Source: Nannocystis bainbridge | Lineage (GTDB): Bacteria; Myxococcota_A; Polyangia; Nannocystales; Nannocystaceae | Length of the DNA: 64,000 nt | Reading direction: 5' to 3' | Assembly (NCBI RefSeq): GCF_028368995.1 | Contig: NZ_JAQNDL010000002.1 | Span: 545,724-609,723 of the forward strand | Shown here: positions 5,801 through 63,658 of the stretch, piece by piece | How the letters are laid out: every line of letters starts with the position of its first letter | Numbering within the stretch: position 1 is the stretch's first letter | Notes under the pieces: model-generated | What the model was told of the DNA's origin: nothing | Seen by the model: the letters and a program-made list of their open reading frames with translations, nothing else | Databases searched by the model: none | Position numbers and translations under genes: made by a program

Positions 5801-6952
5801 ATGCAGTTCTCGCGTCGTCCGCTCCACGGCCTGTGCGTCGTGCTCGCAGCCTCGCTGATGGCGCCGCCCGTGGCCGCCGCGCCAGCGAAGACCCAAGACG
5901 CGCCGGCCGGCACCGCCAGCTCGAGCCGGCCGATCGACGCCGACATGCCGGACGCCGGCGACGAGGCGATCCCCGACGACGCGCTCGAAGAGGGCCAGGT
6001 CGCGGCCGGCGCCCGCGCGACGTCCGGCGCGGGCCCGAAGACCGGCTCGGGCCTCTCGATGTCGCGCAAGCCCAATGTCGGCTCCGACACGCTGGCCCTG
6101 CAATTCGACGCCGAGGCGTCGGCCCGCTTCGACGAGGGCAACTACCGCGAGGCCGCCCGCATGTGGGTCAAGGCGCTCGACGTGCTGTCGGAGAACGAGT
6201 CGAACCACTCGGTCCGCTCGGCGATCCTGCTCAACGCGGTCACCGCCTACGAGCAGCTGTTCGTCGAGTCCGGCGACGTCGACATGCTCAAGCGCGGGCA
6301 GGTCATCATCGCGGACTACCTGCGCGCCTGCAAGAAGCGCTACGGGACCGCCTGCGAGCGCTACCCGGAGACGATGGACGCCCGCAAGCGCCTCGAGGAG
6401 CTGATCAAGCGCATCGAAGAGGTGCAGCCGAAGATCAAGAAGATCCCGCCCGAGATCGACACGGCGCCGGGCGGCCGGCCGTACAACCGGGCGATCACGC
6501 AGCCGTCGGCGCCGGCGTGGATGGGGGCGTCGTTCGCGGTCGGCGTGGCGCTGATCGGCGGCGGCGTGACGCTGGCCTACTGGGCCCGCACCAACCCGAA
6601 GTTCAAGGAGACGGACGCGGACGCGCTCGAGTCGCAGCTCATCCGCTTCCGCGACGAGACCGACACCGGCGGCACCGACGACACGGGGACCGACGGGACC
6701 GACGGGACCGACGGGACCGACGGCGCCCCGACGTCGGGGACGACGCAGATCGAGCTGGCCCCGAAGGTCCGCGGCGACCTGGCGACGGCCGCGGGGGTGT
6801 TCCTGGCCGTGGCCGGCCTCGGCCTCATCGTCATGGCGTCGGTCAAGCTGGCCAAGCACCGCCGGATCAACCGCGAGCGGGCGTCAGTGCTGTCGGTGTT
6901 CCCGGCGTTCACGCCCGGCGGCGGCGGGCTCGGGCTCACCGGGCGGTTCTAG
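5801..6952 (+). CDS. secreted/membrane-anchored hypothetical protein with (GTD)n repeat
   Basis: ATG at 5801. Signal peptide MQFSRRPLHGLCVVLAASLMAPPVAAAP, a TM segment (WMGASFAVGVALIGGGVTLAYW), a TDTGGTDDTGTDGTDGTDGTDG repeat and a second C-terminal TM. Confidence 0.7.
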   Translation: MQFSRRPLHGLCVVLAASLMAPPVAAAPAKTQDAPAGTASSSRPIDADMPDAGDEAIPDDALEEGQVAAGARATSGAGPKTGSGLSMSRKPNVGSDTLALQFDAEASARFDEGNYREAARMWVKALDVLSENESNHSVRSAILLNAVTAYEQLFVESGDVDMLKRGQVIIADYLRACKKRYGTACERYPETMDARKRLEELIKRIEEVQPKIKKIPPEIDTAPGGRPYNRAITQPSAPAWMGASFAVGVALIGGGVTLAYWARTNPKFKETDADALESQLIRFRDETDTGGTDDTGTDGTDGTDGTDGAPTSGTTQIELAPKVRGDLATAAGVFLAVAGLGLIVMASVKLAKHRRINRERASVLSVFPAFTPGGGGLGLTGRF

Positions 6953-7024
6953 GGCCTGTCCCCGCGGACAGGTGCGAGAGGGCATGTCCTGGCGGGCATG
7001 TTCTTGAGGGCAGGTGCCCGAGGG

Positions 7025-7206
7025 CATGTCCTCGGGGGCATGTCCTCGGAGCATGTCCTCGGAGCATGTCCTCGGAGCATGTCCTCGGAGCATGTCCTCG
7101 GAGCATGTCCTCGGAGCATGTCCTCGGAGCATGTCCTCGGAGCATGTCCTCGGAGCATGTCCTCGGAGCATGTCCTCGGAGCATGTCCTCGGAGCATGTC
7201 CTCGGG
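7025..7206 (+). repeat. 13-bp tandem array GCATGTCCTCGGA x ~13 (half-site of the GGACATGTCC palindrome), flanked by inverted-repeat hairpins
   Basis: Perfect units at 7038, 7051 ... 7194, with degenerate units upstream. The left flank has ggcctgtccccgcggacaggtgc and the right flank gacaggtgcgggggcacctctgtc. It is intergenic, between a stop at 6952 and the fghA start at 7319. Confidence 0.9.
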
Positions 7207-7318
7207 GACAGGTGCGGGGGCACCTCTGTCGCGGTGAGCAGGCTCGGCAGCAGCGGGCGGGCCGCGGCGCTCGCGGCGGGCTACCGCGCGGGGCCGCCCG
7301 GTGCTAGGGTCGCGGGTG

Positions 7319-8164
7319 ATGGATCTGCGGACGATCAGCGAGAGCCGCTGCTTCGGCGGCGTACAGGGGACCTACAGCCACGCTTCGACATCGACCGGGA
7401 CGGAGATGCGCCTGTCGGTGTTCGTGCCGGAGCAGGGCCGCTCGCGCGCGCTGCCGGCGGTGATCTTCCTGTCGGGGCTGTCGTGCACCGAGGAGAACTT
7501 CACGGTCAAGGCGGGCGCCCAGCGCTACGCGGCCGAGCTGGGGCTGATCCTGGTGGCGCCCGACACGAGCCCGCGCGGGCCGGGCGTGGCCGACGATCCC
7601 GCGTATGACCTGGGCCAGGGGGCCGGGTTTTACGTCGACGCGACGGAGTCGCCGTGGGAGCCGCATTTCCGCATGTACTCGTACGTGGCGACGGAGCTGC
7701 CGGGCCTGATCGCCGGCAACTTCCCGCTCCGCGCCGGGGCGCTCGGGATCATGGGCCACTCGATGGGCGGGCACGGGGCGCTGGTGGCGGGGCTACGCGA
7801 GCAGGCGACGTTCGGGTCGGTGTCGGCGCTGGCGCCGATCGCCACGCCGTCGCAAGTGCCGTGGGGGATCAAGGCGTTCTCGGCGTATCTGGGGCCGGAG
7901 GCGCAGCGGTGGCGCCCGTACGACGCGACGGCGCTGGTCGAGGACGGGCTCACGCGCAAGGACCCGATCCGCGTCGATCAAGGCGAGGCGGACAAGTTCC
8001 TCGGCGAGCAGCTGCGGCCGGAGGTGTTCGCGGCGGCGTGCGAGCGGGCCGGCCAGCCGGTGACGGTGCACCGGCACGCCGGCTACGACCACGGGTATTT
8101 CTTCGTGGCGACGCTGGTCGGCGAGCACCTGCGCCACCACGCCGAGCTGCTCGCGCGGCGCTGA
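7319..8164 (+). CDS. fghA: S-formylglutathione hydrolase (esterase D family)
   Basis: N-terminal MDLRTISESRCFGGVQGTYSHASTSTGTEMRLSVFVP and the active-site motif GHSMGGHGAL. About 280 aa, typical for this family. Confidence 0.85.
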   Translation: MDLRTISESRCFGGVQGTYSHASTSTGTEMRLSVFVPEQGRSRALPAVIFLSGLSCTEENFTVKAGAQRYAAELGLILVAPDTSPRGPGVADDPAYDLGQGAGFYVDATESPWEPHFRMYSYVATELPGLIAGNFPLRAGALGIMGHSMGGHGALVAGLREQATFGSVSALAPIATPSQVPWGIKAFSAYLGPEAQRWRPYDATALVEDGLTRKDPIRVDQGEADKFLGEQLRPEVFAAACERAGQPVTVHRHAGYDHGYFFVATLVGEHLRHHAELLARR

Positions 8165-8230
8165 GGCTTCGCGGCGGCGACGGGTCGTGAGGCGAGGTAT
8201 CGGGGGCGCGTGCTCCGCTAGTTCGGCTCT

Positions 8231-8336
8231 TGACCCGATGTCGTGAGCAGGACCGCGGGCAGGCAGACTCCCGAGCACGGCTCATGACGCGATGTCGTGA
8301 GCAGGACCGCAGGCAGGCGGACTCTCGAGCACGGCC
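8231..8336 (+). repeat. tandem direct repeat, ~54 bp x2
   Basis: tgacccgatgtcgtgagcaggaccgcgggcaggcagactcccgagcacggc is followed by tgacgcgatgtcgtgagcaggaccgcaggcaggcggactctcgagcacggc. It lies between convergent genes. Confidence 0.8.
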
Positions 8337-12292: not shown

Positions 12293-13504
12293 TCAGGGCA
12301 ATTTATCGCCCGTGTCGCACAGGAAGCGGAAGCTGTAGCCGCCAGGCGCGGGCAGGGCCTTGTAGCTCTTCACGCTGCCGTCCTGGTTCCACTGGTAGAG
12401 CATCGAGCAGCCCTCGCACGCGCCGAGCTCGTCGGGCTCGCCGCTGCCGACGGCGACGTCGCTGACGTACCAGGCCTCGTCGTCGCCGGCGCGCCACTCG
12501 GGACAGTCGAGCCCGTTGAGCGGCGCGTCGACGCAGCTCTGCCCCGCGGTGACCGGATAGATCCCCAGAATCTGCAAGTAGTCGGCGCCGCTCTTCACCG
12601 CCCCGCCGCCGACGGGTTCGAGGTCCTCGCCGGTGACGACCTGCCAGGCGGCTTCGAGGTGGGCCGGGCTGCGCGGGGTGAACAGCTGCATGCCCCACTC
12701 GTTGCAGGTGGTCTCGGCCTTGGTGGCGGTGGCGGGGCTGGGGTTCATGCCGGCGGCGACGTCGACCTTGAGGAAGGTGTAGCCGCCGCCGTCGGTGGCC
12801 TCGTCGAGGGCGCACCAGACCTGGATCGAGTCGGCGACGCCCTCGCGGCGCACGCTGAAGATGCCGCTGACGGCCGCGGGGTCGGCCTCCTGCCACTCGC
12901 GGCAGCTGTGGGCGTACTGGCACGAGGGCAGGCAGTCGGGGCCGTCCTCGCAGTCCTCGAGCTCGGGCTCGACCACGCCGTCGCCGCAGCCGGGGCCGGC
13001 GGCGCTGCAGTCGGCGAGGCAGCCGCCGTAGCTGCCGTCGTTGACGCCGTCGTCGCAGACCTCGCCGCCGTTGAGGACACCGTCGCCGCAGGCGGGGACG
13101 CGGCACTCGGTCGTGCAGGCGCCGTCGTCGGCGTTGTCGGGGCCGAGGTCGCACTCCTCGGCGGCCTTGTTGACGAGGCCGTCGCCGCAGGTGGCGTTGA
13201 GGCAGGCGGTGGTGCAGTCGCCGTCGTCGGCGTTGGCGGGCCCGAGGTCGCACTGCTCGCCGGGGTCGACGAAGCCGTCGCCGCAGGCGGGCCCGGCGGT
13301 GGTGGAGGTCGGGCCCGCGGTCGGGTCGTCAGTGGTGGAGCTGGTGGTCTGGGGCGGCGGCTGGGTGGTCCCGATGTCGGTCGTGCCGATGTCCGAGGTC
13401 GCGTTCGACTCGGTCTCGGTGTTGGCGTTGGGGTCGAGGCACGCAGGCAGGGCCGTGACGCTCAACAGGGGCAGCGAGATCCAGAGGCGCGACGCGATGG
13501 GCAT
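12293..13504 (-). CDS. lipoprotein with Cys-rich CGDG...ECD repeats and C-terminal fibrinogen-related-like domain
   Basis: Start MPIASRLWISLPLLSVTALPAC. Repeats ACGDGFVDPGEQCDLG...DCTTAC (x4). C-terminal VWCALDEATDGGGYTFLKVD resembles the FReD core C[DM]xxxxGGGWT. Confidence 0.7.
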   Translation of the reverse strand: MPIASRLWISLPLLSVTALPACLDPNANTETESNATSDIGTTDIGTTQPPPQTTSSTTDDPTAGPTSTTAGPACGDGFVDPGEQCDLGPANADDGDCTTACLNATCGDGLVNKAAEECDLGPDNADDGACTTECRVPACGDGVLNGGEVCDDGVNDGSYGGCLADCSAAGPGCGDGVVEPELEDCEDGPDCLPSCQYAHSCREWQEADPAAVSGIFSVRREGVADSIQVWCALDEATDGGGYTFLKVDVAAGMNPSPATATKAETTCNEWGMQLFTPRSPAHLEAAWQVVTGEDLEPVGGGAVKSGADYLQILGIYPVTAGQSCVDAPLNGLDCPEWRAGDDEAWYVSDVAVGSGEPDELGACEGCSMLYQWNQDGSVKSYKALPAPGGYSFRFLCDTGDKLP

Positions 13505-13724: not shown

Positions 13725-16700
13725 TCAGCGCGATTTGACTTCGAAGCCGAGGGCGCGCCGGGCCCCGACGTAGGCCGGGCTGACGGCGAACACCAGCAGG
13801 TCGCGCAGGTCGGCGTCGTGGGCGGCGCGGGCCTTGAGGGCGGCGCTGCGTTCACCTGGCTCTTGGGGCAGGCCGAGGATGTCGAGCGCGGCGCCGAGGT
13901 TGCGCGACAGGCACAGGCCGACGCGGTCGCCGGAGCGCTGGACCCACGCGCGCCAGTCGCGGCTGTCGAAGCCCTCCTGCTCGCGCTCCTTGAACTGGCC
14001 GCTGAGCTGGCGCGCCAGCCGGATCGGCAGCTTGCGCGCGAGGGTCTGGCCGAGCCGCGTGGCCAGGTCGGCCTCGTCGCGGGTGCGCACGCGCCGGGTG
14101 TGGCGCGGGTGGAACGCCTGCAGCGCGGCCGCGAGGACCCCGGCGAACAACGGCCGCGGCAGGCCGGCGACCAGGATCGCGGCCGGGCGGGTGAAGAACA
14201 GCGCGCGGCCGAGGGCGAAGCGCAGGCGCGGCGCGGTGGTCTCGGCGCGGGCGGCCGGGCCGACGAGGATCACCGGCGAGTGCACGCACGAGACGCTGGT
14301 CCAGCCGCCCTCGACGTGCATCTCGGGGAGCAGGCCGACATCGGCGAGGCGCACGCCCTGGGCGGCCATCTGGGTCCCGAGCTCGGTCCAGACCTTCCAC
14401 AGCAGGGTGTCCTTGTCGGTCTCGGCCTCGATCCAGGCGGCCTCGTTGAACTGCGGGCGCGGCAGCTCCTCGGCCAGCAGCTCGGCGGCGCCCTCCCACA
14501 GCGCGGTCATGGCCGGGACCACGCCGGCGTCGGCGGGGGCCGGCTCGACGACGGTGGCCGGGTCGAGCTTGCCGCCGCGGACCGACAGCAGCTCGTGGCT
14601 GGTGAGGAAGGCGCCGGCCTCGGCGTGGCCGGGGCTGACGATGCGCAGCAGCTGATGGATGGCGTGGGCGCGGTGCTCCTCGCCGGCCTCGGCGCAGTGG
14701 CGGGCCAGGGCGGCCAGGCTGGCCTCGTCGAGCGGATCGAGGTGCAGCAGGGCGTCGGAGTTGGTGCGCACCTGCGGGCCCTGGATCTTCTCGTCGGCGT
14801 AGAGCTTGGCGAGCTGGCGCCGCGGGGCCAGGCCGAGGCCGGTCGGGTCGAGCTCGGCGGCCCGCTCGAGCAGCCGGATCGCCTGCGCGGGGCGGCTGTC
14901 CTTCGGGTCAGGCGATGGCTCGGCCTGGACCACGAGATCGGCCAGACGGACCAGCAGGCGCTGGCGATCGCGGGCCTCGCGTGGGTCACCAGGCGGCTTC
15001 TGGACGCTCTCGCGGGCCAGGTAGGCGCGCACCGCCGGCTCGATCTCGTCGACCGCACCGGTGGCCCGCAGGGCGTCGACGAGGCCGTGGATCGGGGCGG
15101 CGGCGTCGGGCAGCAGCGGGGCGGCGGCGCGGGCGTAGGCGAGCGCGCGCGCGGGGTCGCCGGGCTCGCCGCGCTGGAGGGCGATCTTGACGCCCTCGAG
15201 CAGGAAGCCGACGCGCTTGGCGTCGCGCAGGTCGGGGTGGTGGAGCAGGCGGTCGAGGCAGCCGAGGGCGATGCCGGCGTTGCGGGTGACGGCGGTCCAG
15301 AAGGCGGCCTCGAGCTGGCGGCGGTCGAGCACCGGGTGCGGGATGTGCTGGATCAGCGCGAGGCCGGCCTGGACCGCCTCGAAGGCGGCGCCGAGGATCT
15401 TCTGCGCCGAGGCGCTGACGACCGTCTCTTCGCCGGACTCGGCGGCGGCCCCGGCGGCCTCGTGGAACAGCATGCCGGCGGCGAGCAGGGCCCGGCCGCG
15501 GGCCTCGGGGTCCTGCTCGAGGTCGGCGAGCGCGAGGGTGTGGTCGGCGGCGTCGACCAGCCGGCCCGACTCCTGGGCCAGCTGGGCCAGGGCGGCGCGG
15601 GCCTTGCGGTGGCGGGGGGCCAGCTCGAGCGCGCGGGCGTAGCGGGCCGCCAGGCGGTCGGTGGGGGCGTTCTGCTTGGCGTCGCACTCGGCGGCGAGGA
15701 TCAGCAGATCGGCGACCACCGAAGCCCGCTCGGGCGCGACCGGGGTGCCGGCGGCGAGGCGCTGCTCGACCGGCTCGAGGGCGGCCACGGCGTCGCGGTA
15801 ACGACCGGCGGCGGCGCGGTTGTGGGCCATGCCGGCGCGGATCTCGAGGTCGTCGGGGACGTGGCGCAGGGCCATCGAGAGCCGGCGGTAGGCCTCGTTG
15901 GCGCGGTCGGTCTGCTCGAACAGGCGCGCCAGCATCAGCAGGCCCTCGACCAGGCGCGGCTGGTCGCGGGTCAGGCCGAACGCCTCGACCGCGGCCTCGA
16001 GCGTGGCCTCGGCCTCGGCGTGCAGGCCGGCGTCGATGAGGGCGGCGCCGAGGGCCAGGCGCGCGGGCGCGTGGTCGGGGTCGGCGGCGAGGGCCGCCTC
16101 GAAGCGCTGGCGGGCGCGGGCGAACTCCTGGCCGCCGCGCAGGAGGGCGCGGCCGCTCTCGGTGAGGATCCGGGCCCGGATCTCGGGGTCGTCGATCTGG
16201 GCCAGCTGGGCGTCGAGCAGGGCGTCGGCGCCGTCGAGGTCGCCGGCGGCCAGGCGCAGGCCGACCAGGCCCTCGATCGCCTGCGACAGCCGGCGGCTGC
16301 GCTGCGGGGCGCCGGGGGCCAGCTCGGCGAGCACGCGGGTGAACAGCTGGGCGGCCAGCTCGGGCTCGTGAAGGCGGTCGCGGGCGATCGCGGCGGCCTC
16401 GAGGATGCCGTCGGGCTCGCCGACGGCGGCGAGGCTGACGGTGAGGGCCCGGTCGTCGCCGAGGGCCCGCGCGAGCGCGACGCGGCGCTGCTGCAGGCCG
16501 AGGGCGGCCTCCGGCGGGGCGTCGGCGAGGGCCTCGTCGAGGGTCTCGAGCGCGCCGCGGGGGTCACCTGCCTCTTCGGCCAGGGCGGTCGCCAGCGCCT
16601 CGGCGATCCGCACCCGGCGGGCCGCCAGCGCCGGCGAGACCGGCTCGGGGATGTCGAACGGCAGCGGCTCCTCCGCGAGCGGCTCGTTGCGCACCTCCAT

Positions 16701-19700
16701 GTCGCTGACGATCTCGGCCAGGCGCCGGCGCAGCATCTCGATGCCGTCGTCCATGCGCCCGCCCTTGCGGTAGAGGCGGGACAGGCCGAGCACGACGTCG
16801 TCGTTCTCGGGGGCCTCGGCGGCCAGCGTCTCGAGCGTCTCGAGCGCGGCGGTCTCGTCGCCCTGGCCCTCTTGCAGGGCCCGCGCCTTGACGACCAGGA
16901 GGGCGATGCGAGCGTCGCGGTCGCCGGGGCCGACCTGGGCCAGGCGGCGGTCGAGGATCGGCAGCAGCTTGGCGTACTGCTCGCTGCGCAGGTAGAGGCT
17001 CTGCAGGCGCGCCAGCGCGTCGGGGTCGCCGGGGTTGTGGTCGAGGACCTCGGACCAGCCGGCGATCGCGGCGTCGAGCTGGCCGAGGCGCTCCTCGGTG
17101 AGGGTGGCGGCGCGGGCCAGGCAGCGCACGCGCGCGTCGGGGTTGGGCACCACCTCGGCGGCGGTGCGCAGGGCCTCGACCGCGCGGACCCACAGGCCCT
17201 CGCGCTGGAGGATCTCGATCAGCTCGGCGTGGACGTCGGCGGTCTCCGGGGTCTCTTTGACCAGGGCCTCGAGCCGACGGATGGCCTCGAGCGAGCGGTC
17301 GGCCCGGTAGGCGAGGTCGCGCGCGAGCTGGAGGACGCGGGGGATCCGCTCCGCGAGCGGGAGGCCGTCGGCCTCGACGTCGTAGAGCCGCGCCGAGGCC
17401 TCGGCGGCCTCGCGCTCGCGCCCGGTCTTGGCGTGCAGCGCGGCCAGGCTGCGCAGCGCGCCGAGGTGCTTCGGCGAGACCGCGAGCACGCCGCGGTACT
17501 GCTCCTCGGCGCGCTCGGGCTGACCTGTCTGTTCGTACAGGTCGGCGAGGCGCGAGTGATAGGCGACGATGTGCTCGGGCAGGGTGAGGTCGGACAGCAG
17601 GCGCGAGAGCGCGGCGATCAGGCGCTCGGGGTCGGCTGTCCGTTCGGCCATGTGGACGAGGCCGGTGAGCGCGGCCGCGTCGTCGGGCACCAGGGCCAGG
17701 GCCTCTTCGTAGCGCTCGAGCGCGGCGTCGGGCCGGCCGGCGCCCTCGTCCCACAGGCGGGCGAGCAGGCGCTGCAGGCCGGCGCGCTCGGACTTGCTGG
17801 CGGGGACCACCGAGGCGTAGGCGTGGGCGAGCTCGTGCCAGGCGCTGCTGGCGGCGGGGCGGACCGGCACGACCGGGGCCTCGAGCTCGGGCAGGGCCGG
17901 CAGGCCGGCGGTGACGGCGTCGATGAGCTCGCGGCTGGCGACCGGCGGCGGCGGGGGCAAGCTGGCCGCGGGGACAGGTTCGGGCGGGCGCGACGGCGGC
18001 GGCGGGGCGGCGGGCCGGCGGGTCGGCGGCGGGGCCTTGGCGAGCGGCTTGCCGCCCGGCGGGCGCGGCGGGGTCGGCCCCCGCGGCTTGGCGGCGGGCC
18101 GCGGCAGCGAGCGCTTGTGAGACACAGGCCGCGGGGCGTCGTCGTCGAGCTCGAGCATCTCGTCGAGGTCGAGCACGCCGGACACCTCGGCGCTCGGGCG
18201 CTTCGGCGCCGGACCGACCAGGCTGTCCTCGATCGGCTCGAAGTCGGCGAGGTCGAACACGCCGGACTCTTGCCGCGGCAGGCCGGCCGCGCGCACGCTG
18301 ACCGAGCCCGAGGCCTCGAGCGGCTCGAGCTCGGCGATGTCGACGATGTCGGTCTCGCCGCGGCTCGGCCGCGGGGCGCGGACCTTGATCGCGGTGGCCG
18401 ACAGCTCGACGGGCTCGAGGTCGGCGAGGTCGACGATGTTGGTGTGCGTCTCGCTGCGGAAGGTCTTGCCGGGGCGGGCGACGACCTCCTTGCCGCCGCC
18501 GCGCCGCAGCTCCTCGAGCGGCTCGAGCTCGGACAGCTGGATCTCGGCGGTCGGGCGCGACAGCTCCTCGAGGTCGTCGAGCTCCATCACGCTCGACTCC
18601 TCTTTCTTGCGGGCCTTGACGGCCATGCGCGGGGCGAGCGTGTCGGGGTCGAGGCCGAGCTTGCGCCACTGGTCGCGGTCGGCCAGCTCGGGTGGGGCGA
18701 TCTGCGGCCACAGCAGCGGATCGCGGGCCTGCGGCGGGCTGGTGTAGGTGCCGGTCAGGCCGGCGAGGTGCCACATCTTGGCGTGCGCGGGCCCGAGCTC
18801 ACCTGTCTCGGGGGGCAGGTCGCCCTGCAGCTTCCAGGCGGCGATCCGGGCCCGCAGCGCGTACTCGGGCCGGCCGAGGCAGTTCTCGTAGAGCTCGGCG
18901 ATCTGGGTCAGCAGCTTGCCCTGCTGGGCCTTGCCGGTCCCGAAGTGCAGCTCGCTCGCGGGCGCGAGCAGGAGCAGGTGCCACAGGTTGTCGCGCTCGG
19001 CCAGGCGGTCGAGCTCGAAGCGGGCCTCCTCGTGGCCGGGGTGGAGCGCGAGGGCCCGCAGCCACTCGGCGATCGCGCCGGCGGTGTCGCCGAGGCCGGC
19101 GCGCAGCTCGGCGCGGCGCTTGAGCAATTGCAGCTTGAGCGCGGGATCGACGGTCTGGCCGATGATCTGCTGGGTGACCGAGAGCAGGGTCAGGGCGCCG
19201 GTCGGCGGGGTGTCGGGGCTCTTGTTCTCGTCGACCTTGGCGGCCATCGCCTCGATCGCGGGCATCAGCGCGGTGCCGTCGCGATCGTAAGCGACGCCGA
19301 GCCGCAGGGTGCGCAGCGAGGCCAGCGGATCCTGGCGCTTCTCGTAGTCGATGCGGGCCGAGTCCTTGAGCTGATTGAGGCCGCCGCGTTCGTTGCGCTG
19401 CAGCTTGGCGAGCGCGAGGCCGCGGTGATGATCGGCGAGCTCGGGCCACAGTTGATGGCGCTGGGCCAGCTCGGTCATCAGGCCGGCGGCCTCCTCGGCG
19501 AGCGAGGGGTCGGCCGGGCGCAGGTCGGTCTCGGCGCGGCGCAACCACTGGAAGGCGCGCTTCGGATCGTGGAGGTGGCGCTCGTAGATCTTGGCGATCG
19601 CGGCGCAGGCGTCGAAGCGGCCGAGGCCGGTCCGGGCGCGGGCGAGCTTGGCCTCTTGCAGGTCGACCAGCGCCTGCCACATCTGATGCTGTTCGCCGAG

Positions 19701-22700
19701 GGCCTCGATCTGGCGCCCGAGGTCCTCGTCGTCGGGCCGCAGCTTGTAGGCGCGCTGCAGGTAGCCGATCGCGCGCGCGGGGTCGCCGAGGCGCTCGCGG
19801 GCGATCTCGGCGGCCGAGATCAGCAGGGTGATGGTGCCGAAGTCGCCGTAGTTGGGGGTCTTCTCCTGGAAGGCCAGCTCCTGCTCGCTGACGTCGAGCA
19901 TCTGCGGCCACAGGCCGTGGGCCTGGGCCAGACCCTCGAGGCGAGCTTGCACGGCGCCGGCGTCGAGGCCGGCGCGCAGGGCCACGAAGTAGGCCTTGCG
20001 GCCCCAGGCGAAGGCGAGGTCGGGGTCGCCGATCTTCTTCTCGGCGGTGGCGGAGGCGCCGAGGCACAGGTCGATCTGGCCGCGGCTCTCGGCGCGCGCG
20101 CTCATCTCGGTGAAGCGCTCGCCGTAGACGACGAGCAGGTCCTTGTACATGCCGTGGCGCTCGGCGAACGCCTCGATCTTGGTCTTGAGGTCGCGGCTGC
20201 CGGGGGCGATGCCGAGGGCCCGCCCGAGCAGCGCGAGCGCCCGCTTGGCGTGGCCGAGCCCGAACTCGCACACCTCGGCCATCTGCTCGAGGGTGACGAC
20301 CTGCTGGGCGGCGTCGGTGAGGCTCTCGAGCCGCTTGCCGAGAGTGTCGAGGGTGGCCTGGTGATCGCCGGCCAGCGCCTGCAGCTCGCCGAGGACCTTG
20401 AGGCCCTCGCCGTCGTCGGGCTCCTCGCGCATGAACCGCTGGAACGCGGCGGTGGCCTTGTGCGGGGCGCCGAGGTTGACGACGTAGGTGCGGGCGATCA
20501 GCGAGAACAGCTCGCGCCGCTCCTCGGTCTCGAGCGCCGACAGCAGCAGCACCTCGGCGTGGCGGATCAGGCGGTCGAACTGGCCGGCGCGCTCGTACAG
20601 CTCGAGCAGCTTGAGGGCGACGTCGCGGTTGCCGATGGCGGTGGTCGACGCGAGCTGCTCGAGCACGCGGATGGCGGCGGCCGGGTTGTCGAGCCGGTCG
20701 GCCAGCACCTCGGCGCGCTCCCAGCCGATGCCGAGCGCCTCCTCGTCGCTGTCGGCCATCTCCTGCAGGGTGCCGAGCGAGGCGGCCAGACCGTGCCAGC
20801 TGCCGAGGTTGCGGTAGAGGCGGGTCAGCGCCTCGGTCGCGCCGCGGTGGTCGCGGTGGATCCGGAGCGCGCGCTCGAAGGCCGAGCAGGCCAGGTCGGC
20901 GTCGCCGAGCGACGACTCGGCGACGTGGCCCAGGCGCATGAGGTAGTCGAGCTGGCGGATCGGCGGGGTGCGGGCCGAACTGGCGGCCTTGCCGAGCAAG
21001 TTGGCCAGCTCCTCGCGGTTGCCGAGCGCCTCGTAGGCGGCGATCAGCTTGTCGGTGACCTCGAGGTTGTGCGGGTCGCCGGCCTGCAGCTGCGTCCACG
21101 CCTGGGCCGAGCGCTGCGGGTCCTGCAGCTTGCGGTCGGCGACGTCGGCCATGCGGCGGATGATGCGGGTCCGCTGGGCCGGCTCGCCGACCAGGCCGAG
21201 CTCGCGCGACAGGGCTTCGTGCTCGCCGCCGGCGTCACCGAGCTCGGCCGACAGGCCCTGCATGCGGTGCACGGCGTCGATGTCGGAGGGGCTGTAGCCG
21301 AGGATCTGCTCGCAGGCCCACAGCGCTTCGCGCGGGCTGTGCAGCTCGTGCTGCCACAGCTCGGCCATGCGCCGCAGCAGGACCACGCGCTGCGAGATGC
21401 TGCGGGTGACGTCGTGCTGGCGCCGCAGCAGGTCGATGACCTGGTCGTAAGCACCTGTCCTCTCGTACATCTCGGCGAGCGCGCGCAGGGCCCCCTCGTG
21501 GCCGGGCGCGAGCGCCAGCATCTCCTGCAGCAGGACGATGGTGCGCTGCGGGTCGGTCATGCGCTCGCGGTGGGCCTGCGACAGCCGGCGCAGGACCTCG
21601 AAGCGGCGCTGCGGATCGACGGTGCGCTGCAGCTCGGCCTCGAGGGTGGCGAGGTTGGCGTCGAGCATGCGCGCGCGCTTGTCGATGCGCGCGATCTGGT
21701 CGCGCGGGCGCCAGTCGTTGGGGTAGGCGAGAGCGAGCCGGTTCCAGGCGTCGAGGGCCCCGGCGAGGTCGCCGAGGCGGCGCTCGTAGATCTCGGCGAG
21801 CTCGACGAAGTGCTCGGCGAACTCGCTGCGCGCCAGCGGGCTGTCGGCGCCGCCGCCCATCTGCAGCGCTTGATCGACCTGGTAGAGGATGAGGCCGGCC
21901 AGGTGCGACCAGTTGTTCTTGCGCCGCCAGTGCTCCTTGTAGCCCTCGAACGCCTCGTGGTTGAAGGGCTCGCGCTCGAGCACGCGGTAGAAGCTGACGG
22001 CGGCCCGCTCCTCGTCGCCGAGGTCCTCGCGGGCGACGCGGGCGGCCCACAGCAGCTTGTCGGTCGGCAGGCCGCCAGGGTCCTGCTCGGACCAGCGCTC
22101 GTAGAGGCCGACGAGGCCGTGGTTGTCGCCGAGCTCGACGAGCAGCGCCTCGAGCCGCAACCACGCGTCGCCGCCAGGCCGCTCGAGCCGCGAGGCCTGC
22201 TCGTAGCAGGCGCGCGCCTCTTCGCGACGGGCGAGGCGAGTCTCGAGCAGCTCGCCGCGCGAGAGCCACAGGCCGTAGCTGTCGGCCTCGGTGACGTAGC
22301 CGATCCACGCCCCGTAGAGGTCGTCGAGCTCCATCCACTTCTCCTGCGCCATCAGCAGCTCGGCCAGCGCGTTGCCGGCCTCGTGGTGATCGGGGCGCAG
22401 GCTCATGGCCCGACGCAGGAGGCTGTAGGCGATCTTTTCGTCGCCCTGGCTGCGCGCCAGCTTGGCGGCGCGGAAGAACACGTCGGCGGCCTTTTGCAGG
22501 CCCTCGTCGCTGGCCTTGCCGCTGCCGAGGTAGAGGGCGCCGAAGGCCCGCAGGGCGGCGACGTCGTCAGGGTTGGCCTTGAGCGCGGCCTGGAGGTGGA
22601 GGGCCGCGGAGGGGATGTTCTCGAGCTGCTCGGCCTCGATGCGGGCGAGCCGGAGATGGAGGGAGGCGAAGCGGTCGCGCTCGCGGACGCTGTCGGTGCG

Positions 22701-23372
22701 CGCGAGCTCGACGTTGATCAGATCGATGACGCGCAGCCAGGCGCCGGCCTGGAGATGGAGGCGAATGAGCTGGTCGCTGGCGTCGCGCTCGCCATGGTTG
22801 ATCTCGAGCGCGGCTCTGTAGCAAGCGATCGCCTCGTCGACCTGGCACCGCTGCTCGTCGACCTTGCCGAGCTCGACGAGCGCGCCCGGGACGGCGGCGC
22901 GATCGTGCCGCCGCAGATGATCGAGGCGAAACTTGAGGAGGGTGGCGAGCTCGTCGAGGCTGCCGAGCTCGCCGTAGACCTTGCGCAACTGCTCGTAGGC
23001 GCGGTTGTTGTGCGGCTCGGCCTGGAGGGCGCGCACGAGGGCGTAGGCGGCCTGGGCCTTGTCCTTGACGCGGTCGTTCCACAGCTCGAAGGCCTGGACA
23101 CAGAGCTCGGCGACCTTGGGCGGGCCAGTGATGGCGGCGGCGTGGACGACGAGCAGGGTGGCGAGGCCGCTCCAGTTCTCGGCCTCGCGGAAGGCCCGCC
23201 GCAGCTTCAAGAAGGCGTCGTCGCTGGGCTTGGCGCGAAACGCCGTCAGCTCGGGCGGCTCTCCAGGAGCCACCGGCGGCAACGGGCAAGGCAGATCGTG
23301 AGGCGAGGGCTGGCGCTTGGGCGCGACGGCAGTTTCGGGCATGGGCTTGGTGCCGCGAGCGGGGCCGCCCAA
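13725..23372 (-). CDS. giant tetratricopeptide-repeat (TPR) protein, 3215 aa, with central Pro-rich linker
   Basis: One uninterrupted ORF, Leu/Ala/Glu/Arg-rich, with dozens of TPR-like units (LADLYEQTGQPERAEEQYRGVLAVSP and similar) and a PRPAAKPRGPTPPRPPGGKPLAKAPPPTRRPAAPPPPSRPPEP segment. The + ORF 13608..23417 is its antisense shadow. Confidence 0.85.
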   Translation of the reverse strand: MGGPARGTKPMPETAVAPKRQPSPHDLPCPLPPVAPGEPPELTAFRAKPSDDAFLKLRRAFREAENWSGLATLLVVHAAAITGPPKVAELCVQAFELWNDRVKDKAQAAYALVRALQAEPHNNRAYEQLRKVYGELGSLDELATLLKFRLDHLRRHDRAAVPGALVELGKVDEQRCQVDEAIACYRAALEINHGERDASDQLIRLHLQAGAWLRVIDLINVELARTDSVRERDRFASLHLRLARIEAEQLENIPSAALHLQAALKANPDDVAALRAFGALYLGSGKASDEGLQKAADVFFRAAKLARSQGDEKIAYSLLRRAMSLRPDHHEAGNALAELLMAQEKWMELDDLYGAWIGYVTEADSYGLWLSRGELLETRLARREEARACYEQASRLERPGGDAWLRLEALLVELGDNHGLVGLYERWSEQDPGGLPTDKLLWAARVAREDLGDEERAAVSFYRVLEREPFNHEAFEGYKEHWRRKNNWSHLAGLILYQVDQALQMGGGADSPLARSEFAEHFVELAEIYERRLGDLAGALDAWNRLALAYPNDWRPRDQIARIDKRARMLDANLATLEAELQRTVDPQRRFEVLRRLSQAHRERMTDPQRTIVLLQEMLALAPGHEGALRALAEMYERTGAYDQVIDLLRRQHDVTRSISQRVVLLRRMAELWQHELHSPREALWACEQILGYSPSDIDAVHRMQGLSAELGDAGGEHEALSRELGLVGEPAQRTRIIRRMADVADRKLQDPQRSAQAWTQLQAGDPHNLEVTDKLIAAYEALGNREELANLLGKAASSARTPPIRQLDYLMRLGHVAESSLGDADLACSAFERALRIHRDHRGATEALTRLYRNLGSWHGLAASLGTLQEMADSDEEALGIGWERAEVLADRLDNPAAAIRVLEQLASTTAIGNRDVALKLLELYERAGQFDRLIRHAEVLLLSALETEERRELFSLIARTYVVNLGAPHKATAAFQRFMREEPDDGEGLKVLGELQALAGDHQATLDTLGKRLESLTDAAQQVVTLEQMAEVCEFGLGHAKRALALLGRALGIAPGSRDLKTKIEAFAERHGMYKDLLVVYGERFTEMSARAESRGQIDLCLGASATAEKKIGDPDLAFAWGRKAYFVALRAGLDAGAVQARLEGLAQAHGLWPQMLDVSEQELAFQEKTPNYGDFGTITLLISAAEIARERLGDPARAIGYLQRAYKLRPDDEDLGRQIEALGEQHQMWQALVDLQEAKLARARTGLGRFDACAAIAKIYERHLHDPKRAFQWLRRAETDLRPADPSLAEEAAGLMTELAQRHQLWPELADHHRGLALAKLQRNERGGLNQLKDSARIDYEKRQDPLASLRTLRLGVAYDRDGTALMPAIEAMAAKVDENKSPDTPPTGALTLLSVTQQIIGQTVDPALKLQLLKRRAELRAGLGDTAGAIAEWLRALALHPGHEEARFELDRLAERDNLWHLLLLAPASELHFGTGKAQQGKLLTQIAELYENCLGRPEYALRARIAAWKLQGDLPPETGELGPAHAKMWHLAGLTGTYTSPPQARDPLLWPQIAPPELADRDQWRKLGLDPDTLAPRMAVKARKKEESSVMELDDLEELSRPTAEIQLSELEPLEELRRGGGKEVVARPGKTFRSETHTNIVDLADLEPVELSATAIKVRAPRPSRGETDIVDIAELEPLEASGSVSVRAAGLPRQESGVFDLADFEPIEDSLVGPAPKRPSAEVSGVLDLDEMLELDDDAPRPVSHKRSLPRPAAKPRGPTPPRPPGGKPLAKAPPPTRRPAAPPPPSRPPEPVPAASLPPPPPVASRELIDAVTAGLPALPELEAPVVPVRPAASSAWHELAHAYASVVPASKSERAGLQRLLARLWDEGAGRPDAALERYEEALALVPDDAAALTGLVHMAERTADPERLIAALSRLLSDLTLPEHIVAYHSRLADLYEQTGQPERAEEQYRGVLAVSPKHLGALRSLAALHAKTGREREAAEASARLYDVEADGLPLAERIPRVLQLARDLAYRADRSLEAIRRLEALVKETPETADVHAELIEILQREGLWVRAVEALRTAAEVVPNPDARVRCLARAATLTEERLGQLDAAIAGWSEVLDHNPGDPDALARLQSLYLRSEQYAKLLPILDRRLAQVGPGDRDARIALLVVKARALQEGQGDETAALETLETLAAEAPENDDVVLGLSRLYRKGGRMDDGIEMLRRRLAEIVSDMEVRNEPLAEEPLPFDIPEPVSPALAARRVRIAEALATALAEEAGDPRGALETLDEALADAPPEAALGLQQRRVALARALGDDRALTVSLAAVGEPDGILEAAAIARDRLHEPELAAQLFTRVLAELAPGAPQRSRRLSQAIEGLVGLRLAAGDLDGADALLDAQLAQIDDPEIRARILTESGRALLRGGQEFARARQRFEAALAADPDHAPARLALGAALIDAGLHAEAEATLEAAVEAFGLTRDQPRLVEGLLMLARLFEQTDRANEAYRRLSMALRHVPDDLEIRAGMAHNRAAAGRYRDAVAALEPVEQRLAAGTPVAPERASVVADLLILAAECDAKQNAPTDRLAARYARALELAPRHRKARAALAQLAQESGRLVDAADHTLALADLEQDPEARGRALLAAGMLFHEAAGAAAESGEETVVSASAQKILGAAFEAVQAGLALIQHIPHPVLDRRQLEAAFWTAVTRNAGIALGCLDRLLHHPDLRDAKRVGFLLEGVKIALQRGEPGDPARALAYARAAAPLLPDAAAPIHGLVDALRATGAVDEIEPAVRAYLARESVQKPPGDPREARDRQRLLVRLADLVVQAEPSPDPKDSRPAQAIRLLERAAELDPTGLGLAPRRQLAKLYADEKIQGPQVRTNSDALLHLDPLDEASLAALARHCAEAGEEHRAHAIHQLLRIVSPGHAEAGAFLTSHELLSVRGGKLDPATVVEPAPADAGVVPAMTALWEGAAELLAEELPRPQFNEAAWIEAETDKDTLLWKVWTELGTQMAAQGVRLADVGLLPEMHVEGGWTSVSCVHSPVILVGPAARAETTAPRLRFALGRALFFTRPAAILVAGLPRPLFAGVLAAALQAFHPRHTRRVRTRDEADLATRLGQTLARKLPIRLARQLSGQFKEREQEGFDSRDWRAWVQRSGDRVGLCLSRNLGAALDILGLPQEPGERSAALKARAAHDADLRDLLVFAVSPAYVGARRALGFEVKSR

Positions 23373-23819
23373 AATACCACGGCCGCGCAGGCGTGTGGTT
23401 TGCGGGCGGACAGGTGACCGTGAACAGCGCGGGGCGCAGGCGGCGCTCGGAGAGGTCGGTGATGGGGGCGGGGAGCCTCAAGGCCGGGGCGGTTCCGCGC
23501 GAGGAGGGTCGCGGTTGTGGCTTCGCGAATTGCCGGCGGCGCCTCGCTGGGGGTCCGGGGAAGGATCGTCGTCGAGTTCAGCGGCTGGATGGGCGTTCGT
23601 GCCTCACGCCCATCCCGCCTCGTATTCGACGTCGACCCTTCCCCGGACCCCCGGCACGGCTGCAGCCGTGAGAGGCCCGCGCGCCGGTCCCGGCTCCGCT
23701 GGCGATCTCGGAGGGGCGGGGGCCGGAGGGCGGCTGTTCGACGGCCAGGGCTGGCCGCCGAACAGCCGCCATCTGGGAGTCCTCGCCGCGGCGTGCGTTC
23801 GCCGGCGGGGAGACGATCG

Positions 23820-27041: not shown

Positions 27042-27800
27042 TCAGAAGCGGCCGGTGAGGCTGACGAGGGCGCCGCGCGGGGTGGGGTTCATGCCGGCGG
27101 AGAAGCGACGGGCGCGGTCGTTGCGGTGGAGCAGGGGGATGAGGGTGCCGATGGCGGTGCCGGCGAGGGAGCCGAACAGGACGTCGGTCCAGAAGTGTTT
27201 GCCGGCCTCGACGCGCAGGACGGCGGTGGCGGCGGCGAGGCCCATCGCGCCCAGCCACAGGGGGACGGCGGCGCGGGCCCGCGGGTGGCGCAGAGTGAAG
27301 ATGGTGGCCCAGGCGCTCATCATGGCGAAGGCGGTCGAGGTGTGACCTGAATAAAAGGACAGGCGGGCCTCCTCGGCGTTGACGTCGCCGAGCTCGCTCT
27401 CGGGCTCGTAGCTGTAGGGCCGCGGGCGCCGGACGGCGAGCTTGACGAGGTTGTTGAGGCCGACGTTGACGGTGAGGACCTCGAACAGGACGACGACGTC
27501 GCGGGCCCAACCGGCCGCGGCGTGCCGGTAGGAGCCGGGGGCGCGCCGGCCGGTGACGAGGGTGTCGGCGAGGTCGGCGAGCACGGGGATGGCGATGGCG
27601 CCGTAGAGGAGGGCGTCGGAGGCGTGGGCGGCGGCGAGGTTCTGATTGCCGAGGACGCGCCGGTCGAGGGCGTTGATGTGGCTGCGATCGCAGGCGCTGC
27701 AGCCGGGCCAGCGCATGTCGCGAGCGGCGAGATCGATGCCGATGGCGGTGACGAGGCCGAGGGTGATGACGGGGACGTCGACGGCGGGCCGCAGGCGCAT
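27042..27800 (-). CDS. PAP2-family phosphatase (phosphatidic acid phosphatase type 2)
   Basis: Motifs KLAVRRPRPY (KxxxxxxRP), SFYSGHTS (PSGH) and RVEAGKHFWTDV (SRxxxxxHxxxD). Start taken at MRLRPAVDV. An alternative upstream start (28178) adds a signal-peptide-like MPRRLLSALLVVLTASPAAA plus a linker that is the translation of the hairpin repeats. Confidence 0.75.
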   Translation of the reverse strand: MRLRPAVDVPVITLGLVTAIGIDLAARDMRWPGCSACDRSHINALDRRVLGNQNLAAAHASDALLYGAIAIPVLADLADTLVTGRRAPGSYRHAAAGWARDVVVLFEVLTVNVGLNNLVKLAVRRPRPYSYEPESELGDVNAEEARLSFYSGHTSTAFAMMSAWATIFTLRHPRARAAVPLWLGAMGLAAATAVLRVEAGKHFWTDVLFGSLAGTAIGTLIPLLHRNDRARRFSAGMNPTPRGALVSLTGRF

Positions 27801-27902
27801 GAGGTGCGGCGGGAGTGATGGAGGAGGGGGCGGGAGCGGGGGAGCGGCGGCGGGGACGATGCCCGCGGGCGTGTCGGCGGTGGGCGGAGCGTCGGGGGCT
27901 GC

Positions 27903-28060
27903 GCTGTCGGACATGTCTTCGGGGACATGTTCGGAGGGGCCGGTGGGTGTGGTGGTCGTTTCGGACATGTCTTCGGGGACATGTACGGAAGGACCGGTCG
28001 GTGCGGCGGACTTGGCGGACATGTCTGGGGAGACATGTGCGGAGGGACCGGTGGGCTGCC
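27903..28060 (+). repeat. ~54-bp tandem repeat x3, each unit carrying a double hairpin GGACATGTCTTCGGGGACATGTWCGG
   Basis: tcggacatgtcttcggggacatgttcgg... / tcggacatgtcttcggggacatgtacgg... / ggacatgtctggggagacatgtgcgg. It lies between the divergent PAP2 gene (-) and the gene starting near 28370 (+). Confidence 0.85.
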
Positions 28061-28369
28061 AGGCGCCGAGTGACTCGCGAGTCGGGGCCAGCGCGGTCCG
28101 GGCGGGGACGAGCGGGTGGGCGGCGGCCGGCGAGGCGGTCAAGACCACGAGCAGGGCGGAGAGCAGGCGGCGCGGCATCGCGGGTCGGCCGAGTATGCCC
28201 GGTCGCGGCGGGACCGGGCAGCCGCGAGATGGTCTTCGGGACAGGTGAACCCATGCGGTCCGCGGCGAGGAGTGGCGGCTCGGGGGATTCGCGGGCGAAG
28301 CACGATGTTTGCGTCGATCGCGCGCGGCTGGCGGCGGGCGCACGCGTCGCGGTAGATTGCGTCTCTGGC

Positions 28370-29837: not shown

Positions 29838-30779
29838 GTGACGGTGGACGGGGCGCGGGGCAACGGCGAGACGCGGGAGGCGATCCTCGACGCGACCGAT
29901 CGGCTGCTGACGAGCCGGGGCTTCCGCGAGGTGACGATGGACGACATCGCGGCCGAGGCGGGGGTCAGCCGGCGCACGATCTACATGTACTTCCCGAGCA
30001 AGATCGAGGTCGGGCTGTCGTCGATCGACCGGGTGGTGGCGCAGACGTTCGCGCGGCTGACGGCGCTGGCGAGCAGGGGCGGCGACCCGGCCGAGGTGCT
30101 GCGCGCGGTGCTGGTCGAGCGGGTGCTGCGGCGGTTCGACAGCGTGAGCGCGTATCGTCAGAGCCTGGACGAGCTGTTCGAGGCGGTGCGGCCGGCATAC
30201 ATGGCCCGAAGGACAGCCCACATGGCGCGCGAGGTGGCGCTGGTGGCGGAGGTGCTGGCGGCCGGGCGGGCGTGCGGGCGGTTCGAGCTCGACGACGCGG
30301 CGGCGACGGCCTCGTCGCTGGTAAAGGCGACGAACGCGTTCCTGCCGTACAGCCTGAGCGTGGTCGAGCTCGGGGAGCGAGCGAAGATCGAGGTGGAGGT
30401 CCGGCGCATGGCGGCGCTGCTGCTGCGGAGCGTGATGACGCCGGCGGGGCTGCACGCGGGGGCAGGGACGAAGAGCGCGGCGCAGACGAAGGGCGCGGCG
30501 CAGACGAAGGGCGCGGCGCAGACGAAGGCAGCGGCGACGACAGCGGCGACGACGAAGGCAGCGGCGAAGACTGCGGTGACGACGAAGGCAGCGGCGACGA
30601 CTGCGGCGACGAAGAAGCCTGCGGCGACGACGAAGGCCGCGGCGACGAAGAAGCCTGCGGCGAAGGGGACGACTTCGACGACGGAACCTGCGGCGACGAG
30701 GAAGCTCGCCGCGACGACGAAGACTGCGGCGAAGGTCGCGGCGCGGGTGAAGGGTCGGGGCCGCGAGCGGGCGGGGTGA
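29838..30779 (+). CDS. TetR-family transcriptional regulator with histone-H1-like Ala/Lys/Thr-rich C-terminal tail
   Basis: HTH TREAILDATDRLLTSRGFREVTMDDIAAEAGVSRRTIYMYFPSK. Tail AAQTKGAAQTKGAAQTKAAATTAATTKAAAKTAVTTKAAATTAATKKPAATTKAAATKKPAAKG. GTG start placed after the operators. Confidence 0.75.
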   Translation: MTVDGARGNGETREAILDATDRLLTSRGFREVTMDDIAAEAGVSRRTIYMYFPSKIEVGLSSIDRVVAQTFARLTALASRGGDPAEVLRAVLVERVLRRFDSVSAYRQSLDELFEAVRPAYMARRTAHMAREVALVAEVLAAGRACGRFELDDAAATASSLVKATNAFLPYSLSVVELGERAKIEVEVRRMAALLLRSVMTPAGLHAGAGTKSAAQTKGAAQTKGAAQTKAAATTAATTKAAAKTAVTTKAAATTAATKKPAATTKAAATKKPAAKGTTSTTEPAATRKLAATTKTAAKVAARVKGRGRERAG

Positions 30780-44792: not shown

Positions 44793-44799
44793 GAGGCCA

Positions 44800-56421: not shown

Positions 56422-56429
56422 GGCCGGGC

Positions 56430-58999: not shown

Positions 59000-59027
59000 T
59001 ATGGTCGGAGGGACGGACGAGCGCGAG

Positions 59028-62889: not shown

Positions 62890-62944
62890 CCCACGCTCCC
62901 GTCTGTCCTTCCGGACAGGTCTTTTCAGACATGTCCTCACGGTC

Positions 62945-63637: not shown

Positions 63638-63658
63638 GGCGGCCTTCCGCACCTGCTC

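Follow-up and report, generated by a model that had tools for sequence, protein, structure and literature searches.

We analysed a 64,000-nt (64-kb) stretch of the Nannocystis bainbridge genome (contig NZ_JAQNDL010000002.1, hereafter the window), in which the top-scoring tandem array found by Tandem Repeats Finder (TRF) is a run of 13-bp units in the 366-bp non-coding gap separating a gene for a tetratricopeptide-repeat (TPR)-like membrane protein from the S-formylglutathione hydrolase gene fghA. The array is most probably a young slippage expansion in a cluster of hairpins that belong to a dispersed family resembling repetitive extragenic palindromic (REP) elements, the cluster itself resembling a bacterial interspersed mosaic element (BIME). 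This reading is carried by the anatomy of the array, by the family to which its unit belongs, by the position of that family relative to genes and by the lineage-specific growth of the gap.

TRF reported 13.9 copies of the consensus GCATGTCCTCGGA at 7024-7205 (period 13, 98% matches, score 348), and a pattern search resolved 12 perfect units at 7038-7193, with one-mismatch edge units, GCATGTCCTCGGG, ending in G, at 7024-7036 and 7194-7206. The roughly 13 head-to-tail copies of the original prediction were thus found as 14 units, 12 of them identical and the first really a 14-mer, which causes a 1-nt phase shift at 7037. As had also been predicted, all units point the same way; they lie on the + strand. 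Matches to the unit with up to two mismatches numbered 21 in the window against 2.3 expected, a count reached in none of 100 shuffles. The array is the youngest part of a 265-bp block (6952-7216) made of reiterated arms of the dispersed hairpin, and the parts of the block and its right flank are as follows.

6954 to 6973, + strand: family hairpin closest to the stop codon and starting a few nt beyond it, (G)CCTGTCC-ccgc-GGACAGG(T) (folding)
6952 to 7049, + strand: older degenerate part, five to seven units with a 14-bp period, of the GGGCATGTCC+N4 and GGGCAGGTGC+N4 types (repeat search)
7024 to 7206, + strand: the 13-bp tandem array, 14 units of GCATGTCCTCGGA (TRF, pattern search, and GC content at third codon positions, GC3)
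7195 to 7216, + strand: terminal canonical family hairpin, CATGTCC-tcgg-GGACAGGTGCG (sequence match at 40779-40799)
7207 to 7230, + strand: imperfect bulged hairpin, GACAGGTGC-ggg-GCACCTcTGTC (read from the sequence; folds no better than shuffles, z = -0.44)

The stop-proximal hairpin, ggcctgtccccgcggacagg (6953-6972), has an 8-bp stem and folds to -16.2 kcal/mol (z = -3.2), with none of 200 shuffles folding as well. The degenerate units that follow (62-76% identity) form overlapping hairpins with G.T wobble pairs and run directly into the 13-bp units; the segment 6978-7037 folds to -37.6 kcal/mol (z = -4.6). A three-unit piece of the array, in contrast, showed no significant local fold (z = -0.34), and the canonical hairpin has therefore been lost in the 13-bp unit. 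Although the gap as a whole can pair with itself in a long, imperfect manner (z = -8), it has no dominant structure. A search with Rfam at gathering thresholds found no family anywhere in the window, and an exact 34-nt piece of the array had 0 matches in metagenome contigs.

The origin of the unit can be read from the terminal hairpin, which from ATGTCC to its end (21 nt, ATGTCCTCGGGGACAGGTGCG, 7196-7216) has an exact second copy at 40779-40799: its 5' arm and loop are the sequence that was reiterated, and the amplified unit is one base short of the local 14-mer GGGCATGTCCTCGG. The suggestion that the array derived from half of a palindromic motif was therefore borne out, the half being 5' arm plus loop. 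Hairpins had also been predicted to bracket the array. Both exist, but the left one lies 52 nt upstream and is not adjacent, whereas the right flank, gacaggtgcgggggcacctctgtc, is directly adjacent but imperfect and bulged. These hairpins and the array unit belong to one dispersed family. In addition, the 11-bp direct repeat GGACAGGTGCG, at 6966-6976 and 7206, stands on either side of the expanded block (about 240 bp), and without that block the gap would measure about 126 bp. The identical central 12 units, the variant edges and this direct repeat are best explained by slippage, in keeping with the earlier proposal of a slippage-expanded minisatellite.

Hairpins of the family have the form (C/A)TGTCC, a 4-nt loop and GGACA(G/T). 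We found 36 matches to TGTC(C/T)-N(2-6)-(G/A)GACA in the window against 0.46 expected, 35 of the 36 with a loop of exactly 4 nt, giving a density of about 0.55 hairpins per kb. The stem is conserved in sequence beyond the mere ability to pair, and among perfect 6-bp stems with 4-nt loops only ATGTCC (8) and CTGTCC (4) were over-represented. In the logo of the flanks, the 5' side reads G-(A/G)-(C/G)-(A/C) and the 3' side (G/T)-G-(T/C). The 10-bp palindrome GGACATGTCC, with 22 matches at up to one mismatch against 1.8 expected, and the natural 14-bp period arise because two hairpins overlap through CATG. The family is present in Nannocystis exedens and Nannocystis pusilla, at 0.4-0.5 per kb, and also in metagenome contigs; 614 kb of unrelated bacterial loci held only two matches to the motif. 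In the searchable literature we found no description of the motif, of REP-like repeats in Nannocystis or myxobacteria, or of REP-associated tyrosine transposases (RAYTs) in myxobacteria, and the family is apparently undescribed.

The gap between the TPR-protein gene and fghA varied widely among relatives, in which the gene order FtsW/RodA, TPR-protein gene, fghA is kept. The gaps compared, with our locus handles for sequences lacking a species name, were:

Metagenome relative L212: 13 bp, only a Shine-Dalgarno-like GGAGGG
L211: 43 bp, the GGTGCTAGGGT box and no hairpin
N. pusilla, Nannocystis radixulma and L083: 99-112 bp, one hairpin near the stop codon
N. bainbridge (the window): 366 bp, the hairpin cluster and the 13-bp array
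N. exedens: 584 bp, an independent 65-bp repeat in 2.9 copies, each unit with gCTGTCTgcgaGGACAGGTG

L211 and L212 were the most distant relatives compared, and the gap of L212 looks like an operon-like arrangement. The position of the stop-proximal hairpin is occupied by a hairpin in N. exedens too, and by the related CCTGACC-gatc-GGCCAGG in N. pusilla and N. radixulma. It follows from the contents of these gaps that the hairpin is a lineage-specific acquisition. The N. exedens repeat (L081, 5180-5372) is accompanied by further degenerate hairpins. Expansion of the gap thus took place separately in N. bainbridge and in N. exedens. In L082, a short-read assembly of N. exedens, the break comes 107 bp past the orthologous stop.

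The family is also placed in a particular way relative to genes, mostly within 0-30 nt past stop codons and in convergent gaps. The first hairpin of a cluster lies close to a stop codon at seven gene ends of the window, and in the window and the other loci examined several first hairpins follow the stop by only 0-6 nt.

3541, 6957, 38485, 38541, 44812, 45951 and 62904: stop-proximal first hairpins, 0-29 nt from the stop codon
38482 to 38557, + strand: convergent gap taken up by two hairpins of the family, which lie 6 nt and 21 nt from its stop codons (motif search)
44809 to 45053, + strand: intergenic cluster of six family hairpins, beginning 19 nt after the stop of an M16 peptidase gene (motif search)

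Stop-adjacent hairpins are stable, at about -16 kcal/mol; for example, the first hairpin of the cluster at 44809-45053, CCTGTCC-ttcg-GGACAGG, folds to -16.7 kcal/mol (z = -4.9). In a pooled census of the window, the Nannocystis loci and the hairpin-bearing metagenome contigs, with genes called by our own GC3-based caller, hairpins per kb of gap amounted to 3.54 in convergent, 1.44 in tandem and 0.41 in divergent gaps, densities that are inflated by the choice of metagenome loci for having arrays, a choice that leaves the type of gap unaffected. Hairpins were held by 12 of the 25 convergent gaps in this census, and the few "divergent" hairpins of the window actually lie inside the open reading frame (ORF) of a PAP2 phosphatase.

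Scanning metagenomes for three CATGTCC at 13-14-bp spacing yielded about 20 high-GC contigs with sister arrays of GGGCATGTCC+N4 at a 14-bp period, in 3-8 copies (for example, 8.3 in L155, 7.6 in L171 and 6.1 in L192). Nearly all of these arrays lie directly after stop codons or exactly fill convergent gaps, as in L192, where the array at 1917-2001 sits between a TGA at 1914-1916 and an antisense stop at 2000-2002. One further contig, L177 (GC 0.65), with a 13-bp array of GCATGTCCTCGAT, was rejected as a family member; it has no hairpins or callable genes and looks like an unrelated minisatellite.

Orthologues of the 3' end of the M16 peptidase gene carry two hairpins in N. pusilla and a different structure in N. 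exedens. After the stop, N. bainbridge (44793-44830) and N. pusilla (L090, 6840-6890) have CCTGTCC-ttcg-GG(A/G)CAGG, and N. exedens (L088, 6840-6925) has a different duplicated stem-loop, CTTCGGACATGGGCGAAG followed by GGACAGG. The comparison suggests that at this site the 5' arm may have turned over and the 3' arm been retained.

The most likely path to the array starts with the acquisition of one family hairpin directly behind the end of the TPR-protein gene. This hairpin would have been reiterated in N. bainbridge as 14-bp units, now degenerate, one of which would have lost a base to give GCATGTCCTCGGA (5' arm plus loop), and this unit would then have been amplified to 12 identical copies by slipped-strand (or unequal-exchange) expansion. 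By analogy with REPs, we infer that the hairpins may be transcribed as stem-loops of the 3' untranslated region (3' UTR), where they would block read-through or protect the 3' end of the upstream mRNA, and that the family may spread via a hairpin-dependent process acting on single-stranded DNA (ssDNA). As for the 13-bp units, they probably do nothing in their own right except widen the gap before fghA and make it hypervariable.

Copies of the hairpin are not restricted to gaps. About 20 of 35 hairpins in the window lie inside ORFs, always in low-complexity linkers, which are disordered parts of unrelated proteins, and the following were located.

40605 to 40797, - strand: family hairpins in the ORF of a 615-aa protein, in a 21-bp-period array translated as PVPADIS (TRF, translation)
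27905 to 28055, - strand: family hairpins in the PAP2 phosphatase ORF (27042-28403), in 54-bp-period repeats translated as ...HVPEDMS... (TRF, translation)
58504 to 58633, + strand: linker of an AMP-ligase/ApeI-dehydratase fusion, with three hairpins of the family that read RDMSAGT, KDMSSGT and RDMSSGT in translation
57415 to 57436 and 57943 to 57976 in the window, 4434 to 4735 in L099 and 10151 to 10332 in L106: further family hairpins inside ORFs

The 615-aa protein is 100% identical over its whole length to one of N. bainbridge; the number of its PVPAD(S/I) repeats varies between Nannocystis orthologues, and their DNA has the same hairpins. In the PAP2 protein the repeats sit between the signal peptide and the PAP2 domain (residues 304-428), and in the fusion protein the hairpins fall in the linker between its two domains (residues 22-446 and 546-616). 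Intragenic hairpin spacings in the window, L088, L090, L099 and L106 are all multiples of 3 (for example, 21, 27, 42, 45, 54, 60 and 66 bp), whereas intergenic arrays have periods of 13 or 14. The segments inside ORFs have a non-coding-like composition, which is consistent with a recent origin. An origin of these repeats at the protein level was rejected, as one and the same DNA sequence is translated from either strand and in more than one frame (DMSxGT, HVPxDMS, PVPADIS) and the common denominator is therefore the DNA, not a peptide. The fusion gene lies in an aryl-polyene-like biosynthetic cluster (56086-63998), several genes of which have family hairpins at their 5' ends or in linkers; besides the fusion of an AMP-ligase with an ApeI/FabA-like dehydratase, the cluster encodes a family-2 glycosyltransferase, a lipid-A-type acyltransferase and an aromatic amino-acid lyase (Pfam 1e-156).

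The hairpins also show a preferred strand. In the window, GGACAGGTG occurs 11 times on the + strand and twice on the - strand, GGGGACA 20 times against four, and G.T-compatible stem variants eight times against two, the last regardless of gene strand. The + strand of the window is strongly and uniformly G-rich (GC skew +0.03 to +0.19 per 4 kb), and GGGGACAGGTG, the asymmetric side of the hairpin, nearly always falls on the strand richer in G, in whichever direction the genes run; in L088 and L090, which have the opposite orientation and a negative skew, all copies read CACCTGTCC. When the G/C asymmetry of the loop was compared with local skew, 34 clusters were concordant and 15 discordant (p ~0.009 against 50:50), a weak signal that is less significant once mutational skew is allowed for. 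The orientation bias could reflect a replication-coupled single-strand mechanism or simply mutational skew.

Several points weigh against an expansion within a REP-like family. The asymmetry of the element tracks the G-rich strand and not transcription, and is more readily explained by a process at the DNA level (replication or ssDNA) than by a function of the RNA. The characteristic REP tag is missing, since GTAG, CTAC, CGTC or GACG was found within 10 nt of just five of the 35 hairpins. No RAYT or other transposase was found among the 31 window proteins that were scanned, and no Y1_Tnp match occurred among these or in the Pfam listings of the relatives' loci; less than 2% of the genome of about 12 Mb was covered. 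No U-tract follows the hairpins, and a simple scan for intrinsic terminators from 6800 to 7400 came out empty; the RNA-level role drawn from REPs is an analogy and not a result. To these are added the inflated densities of the pooled census and the reading of the array as a variable-number tandem repeat (VNTR), which rests on one N. bainbridge assembly.

The same observations lend themselves to another reading, which we hold to be possible but clearly the less likely one, in which the hairpins constitute an undescribed class of mobile or self-amplifying palindrome in the Nannocystaceae. Such palindromes would lack the GTAG tag, would depend on an unknown and possibly non-RAYT enzyme acting on ssDNA hairpins, would insert preferentially in one orientation with respect to the replication (G-rich) strand, and would colonise 3' ends and protein linkers (DMSxGT, HVPxDMS, PVPADS), giving rise to species-specific linker lengths. 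If this were so, the 13-bp array would represent one amplification hot spot.

Slippage within a REP-like family also has to be weighed against regulation of fghA by the array, for which the two neighbouring genes and the sequence before fghA have to be considered.

5801 to 6952, + strand: upstream gene, whose TPR-like product is conserved in Nannocystis and carries a signal peptide and, at its C terminus, a membrane anchor (GC3 ~1.0)
7278 to 7318, + strand: conserved promoter-like block, GGCTaCCGCGCGG...GGTGCTAGGGT, with the ATG 8 nt on (conservation)
7319 to 8164, + strand: fghA, of the S-formylglutathione hydrolase/esterase D family, 281 aa (Pfam Esterase 9.8e-52; ATG at 7319)

The stop codon of the upstream gene, TAG, is at 6950-6952, so that the predicted limits of the gap (stop at 6952, start at 7319) were confirmed, as was the identity of the downstream gene, an esterase-D/FghA-type protein. 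The TPR-like protein has orthologues in N. exedens, N. pusilla and N. radixulma with 71-78% identity and with fghA always next, the fghA orthologues of 281 aa being syntenic. FghA proved too conserved for a useful search of genome contigs, which found 528 relatives (best identity 62%), none of them Nannocystis. GC3 is 0.95-1.0 in both flanking genes and falls to 0.60-0.70, flat in all three frames, over 6960-7260, which marks the array as non-coding even though ORFs can be drawn mechanically across it. A coding array (ORF 7014-7307 and three antisense ORFs) was ruled out by this flat GC3. The promoter-like block, GGCTnC...GGTGCTAnnnT with the ATG 7-9 nt later, is conserved in five Nannocystis loci, the block or its box being present in L081, L083, L086, L087 and L211. 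It may act as the promoter of fghA; a scan of 6800-7400 for sigma-70 promoters and U-tract terminators returned 0 sites. The box, GGTGCTA(C/G)nnT, contains a -10-like TAnnnT, and no obvious Shine-Dalgarno sequence precedes fghA. The arrangement suggests that the fghA mRNA may be leaderless or near-leaderless. Just 3' of fghA, the gap at 8224-8335 holds a 54-bp tandem repeat in 2.1 copies (91% matches) that is not obviously related to the hairpin family.

With its perfect units, a period that is not a multiple of 3 and a promoter-like block about 70 bp further on, the array might form a contingency (phase-variable) locus, in which copy number would alter the spacing or topology relative to the fghA promoter and so switch or tune fghA, and tandem repeats of this kind are intrinsically hypermutable. 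We consider this unlikely, however, since the block is intact and lies entirely on the downstream side of the array, the sequence on the upstream side is the end of a gene and has no conserved regulatory feature, relatives work with gaps of 13-112 bp, and equivalent arrays occur in convergent gaps without any promoter.

A protein-binding array, either iteron-like or an operator, seems slightly less plausible still. Its units would offer the half-site CATGTCC to a protein recognising TGTCC-N4-GGACA, and through titration or polymerisation of that protein the array would act on fghA or on the structure of the local chromosome; in favour, the stem is conserved in sequence, as a sequence-specific reader would produce, and the 14 direct half-sites are perfectly regular. 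However, a 13-bp period places successive sites about 86 degrees apart on the helix and thus out of phase, the loss of the 3' arm in the unit destroys the dimer site, no replication or partition gene is nearby, the sister arrays lie at unrelated gene 3' ends and not at promoters, and a density of about 0.55 hairpins per kb is much higher than a regulon would need. Iterons, which the original prediction had offered alongside a minisatellite, are direct repeats of about 17-22 bp, helically phased and located beside a rep or dnaA gene and an AT-rich unwinding element. They were rejected for this locus, where the period is 13 bp and out of helical phase, the neighbours are the TPR membrane protein, fghA and FtsW/RodA, the GC content is 0.69-0.73 with no AT-rich stretch that might unwind, and similar arrays recur at many unrelated gene 3' ends.

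An inserted miniature inverted-repeat transposable element (MITE), of which the flanking hairpins would be the terminal inverted repeats and the array an internal repeat, is improbable. The arms at 6955-6970 and 7197-7212 are 94% complementary and the block is absent from relatives, but each arm is itself palindromic, so that the arms are equally direct repeats and are independent members of the family, and the position of the left hairpin is already occupied in relatives. Moreover, the window holds no second copy of the block, its 13-bp unit occurs in the window at this locus only, the 34-nt array piece has no match in the metagenome collection, and the interior is a graded series of one unit, as is typical of expansion in situ. 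An assembly or consensus artefact that inflated or created the array, the possibility raised against the original prediction, is very unlikely: low-complexity repeats can be mis-sized, the short-read assembly L082 breaks at the orthologous gap and the metagenome contig L155 ends inside its array, but the N. bainbridge genome was assembled with HGAP (hierarchical genome-assembly process) from PacBio Sequel long reads (PMC10435759), which span 182 bp many times over, the units are exact, and similar arrays occur in many independent assemblies. The long-read check named with the original prediction is thereby in effect already answered.

Among known systems, the closest likeness is with REP elements and BIMEs. 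REP elements are usually situated behind ORFs, where genes run in one direction or converge, and seldom in divergent gaps; some copies inside genes have been described, but in the families reported so far they form a minority (PMC3733652). Like the REP/BIME systems of Enterobacteria, Pseudomonas and Stenotrophomonas, including REP doublets forming hairpins (REPINs) and their RAYTs, the Nannocystis family consists of very numerous imperfect palindromes about 20 bp long, situated downstream of ORFs in tandem and convergent gaps and rare in divergent ones, forming clusters or tandem arrays, with G.T pairs in the stems, occasional copies inside ORFs, and presence and copy number varying between close relatives. 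Unlike them, it has no GTAG or CGTC tag, its arrays are head-to-tail hairpins sharing CATG at a 14-bp period (13 here) whereas BIMEs alternate REPs with linker motifs, and about half of the hairpins in the window are translated in protein linkers, so that the family is not strictly extragenic. With the tag absent, many copies intragenic and no Y1_Tnp among the 31 window proteins scanned, membership in the REP/RAYT system is not established.

With VNTRs and minisatellites such as the mycobacterial interspersed repetitive units (MIRUs), the array shares an intergenic, head-to-tail arrangement between co-oriented genes, attributed to slippage, and a homogeneous centre with variant edge units; near-identical units with variant borders were found here as 12 identical copies, edge units and graded 14-bp units. 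It differs from MIRUs in its unit of 13 bp, against 40-100 bp, and in the derivation of that unit from a dispersed hairpin family. The range of 13 to 584 bp in the orthologous gap and the differing number of in-ORF hairpins between species lend indirect support to the copy-number variation that a VNTR would show. Rickettsia palindromic elements (RPEs) and other intragenic REPs likewise occur in frame in tolerated regions of unrelated proteins, but RPEs are 100-150 bp long and CGTC-tagged, whereas the Nannocystis unit measures 14-21 bp and is arranged in tandem and in frame, in a number that is not constant from one species to the next. The DNA uptake sequences (DUS) of Neisseria and uptake signal sequences (USS) of Haemophilus, which are often paired as terminator-like inverted repeats, have a comparable density of about 0.5-1 per kb and a similar occurrence as inverted pairs after genes and in tolerated coding parts; in Nannocystis, however, the half-site comprises just 5-7 nt, and the hairpin form explains why it is in excess. 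As for intrinsic terminators, the hairpins are stable stem-loops with no T run after them, and they may be U-less terminators or 3'-end stabilisers.

Taken alone, the array is a local curiosity, although it could serve as a VNTR for strain typing of N. bainbridge, and loci of this type are a warning for short-read assemblies, which break there (L082, L155). Its significance lies mainly in being the most extreme local product of a REP-like repeat family. One 14-bp hairpin core explains most of the conspicuous short repeats of the window, marks gene ends and is built into the linkers of at least three unrelated proteins, in a copy number that depends on the species. If the family is genome-wide in Nannocystis, with its genomes of 11-12.7 Mb, it would represent a REP-like system in Myxococcota and a tractable case of selfish or structural repeats shaping 3' UTRs and linkers in large, high-GC genomes.

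The window also contains longer repeats. At 30467-30735, coding repeats of 18, 30 and 36 bp give a TetR-family regulator a tail rich in Lys, Thr and Ala (KGAAQT / KAAATT...), and a 99-bp repeat in 2.5 copies (13052-13291) lies in a DUF4215 Cys-rich protein. Other long repeats are present at 32059-32233 (96 bp, 1.8 copies) and 33784-33942 (75 bp, 2.1 copies). In addition, the - strand at 13725-23477 contains a giant ORF of about 3,200 codons with a clean GC3 signal.

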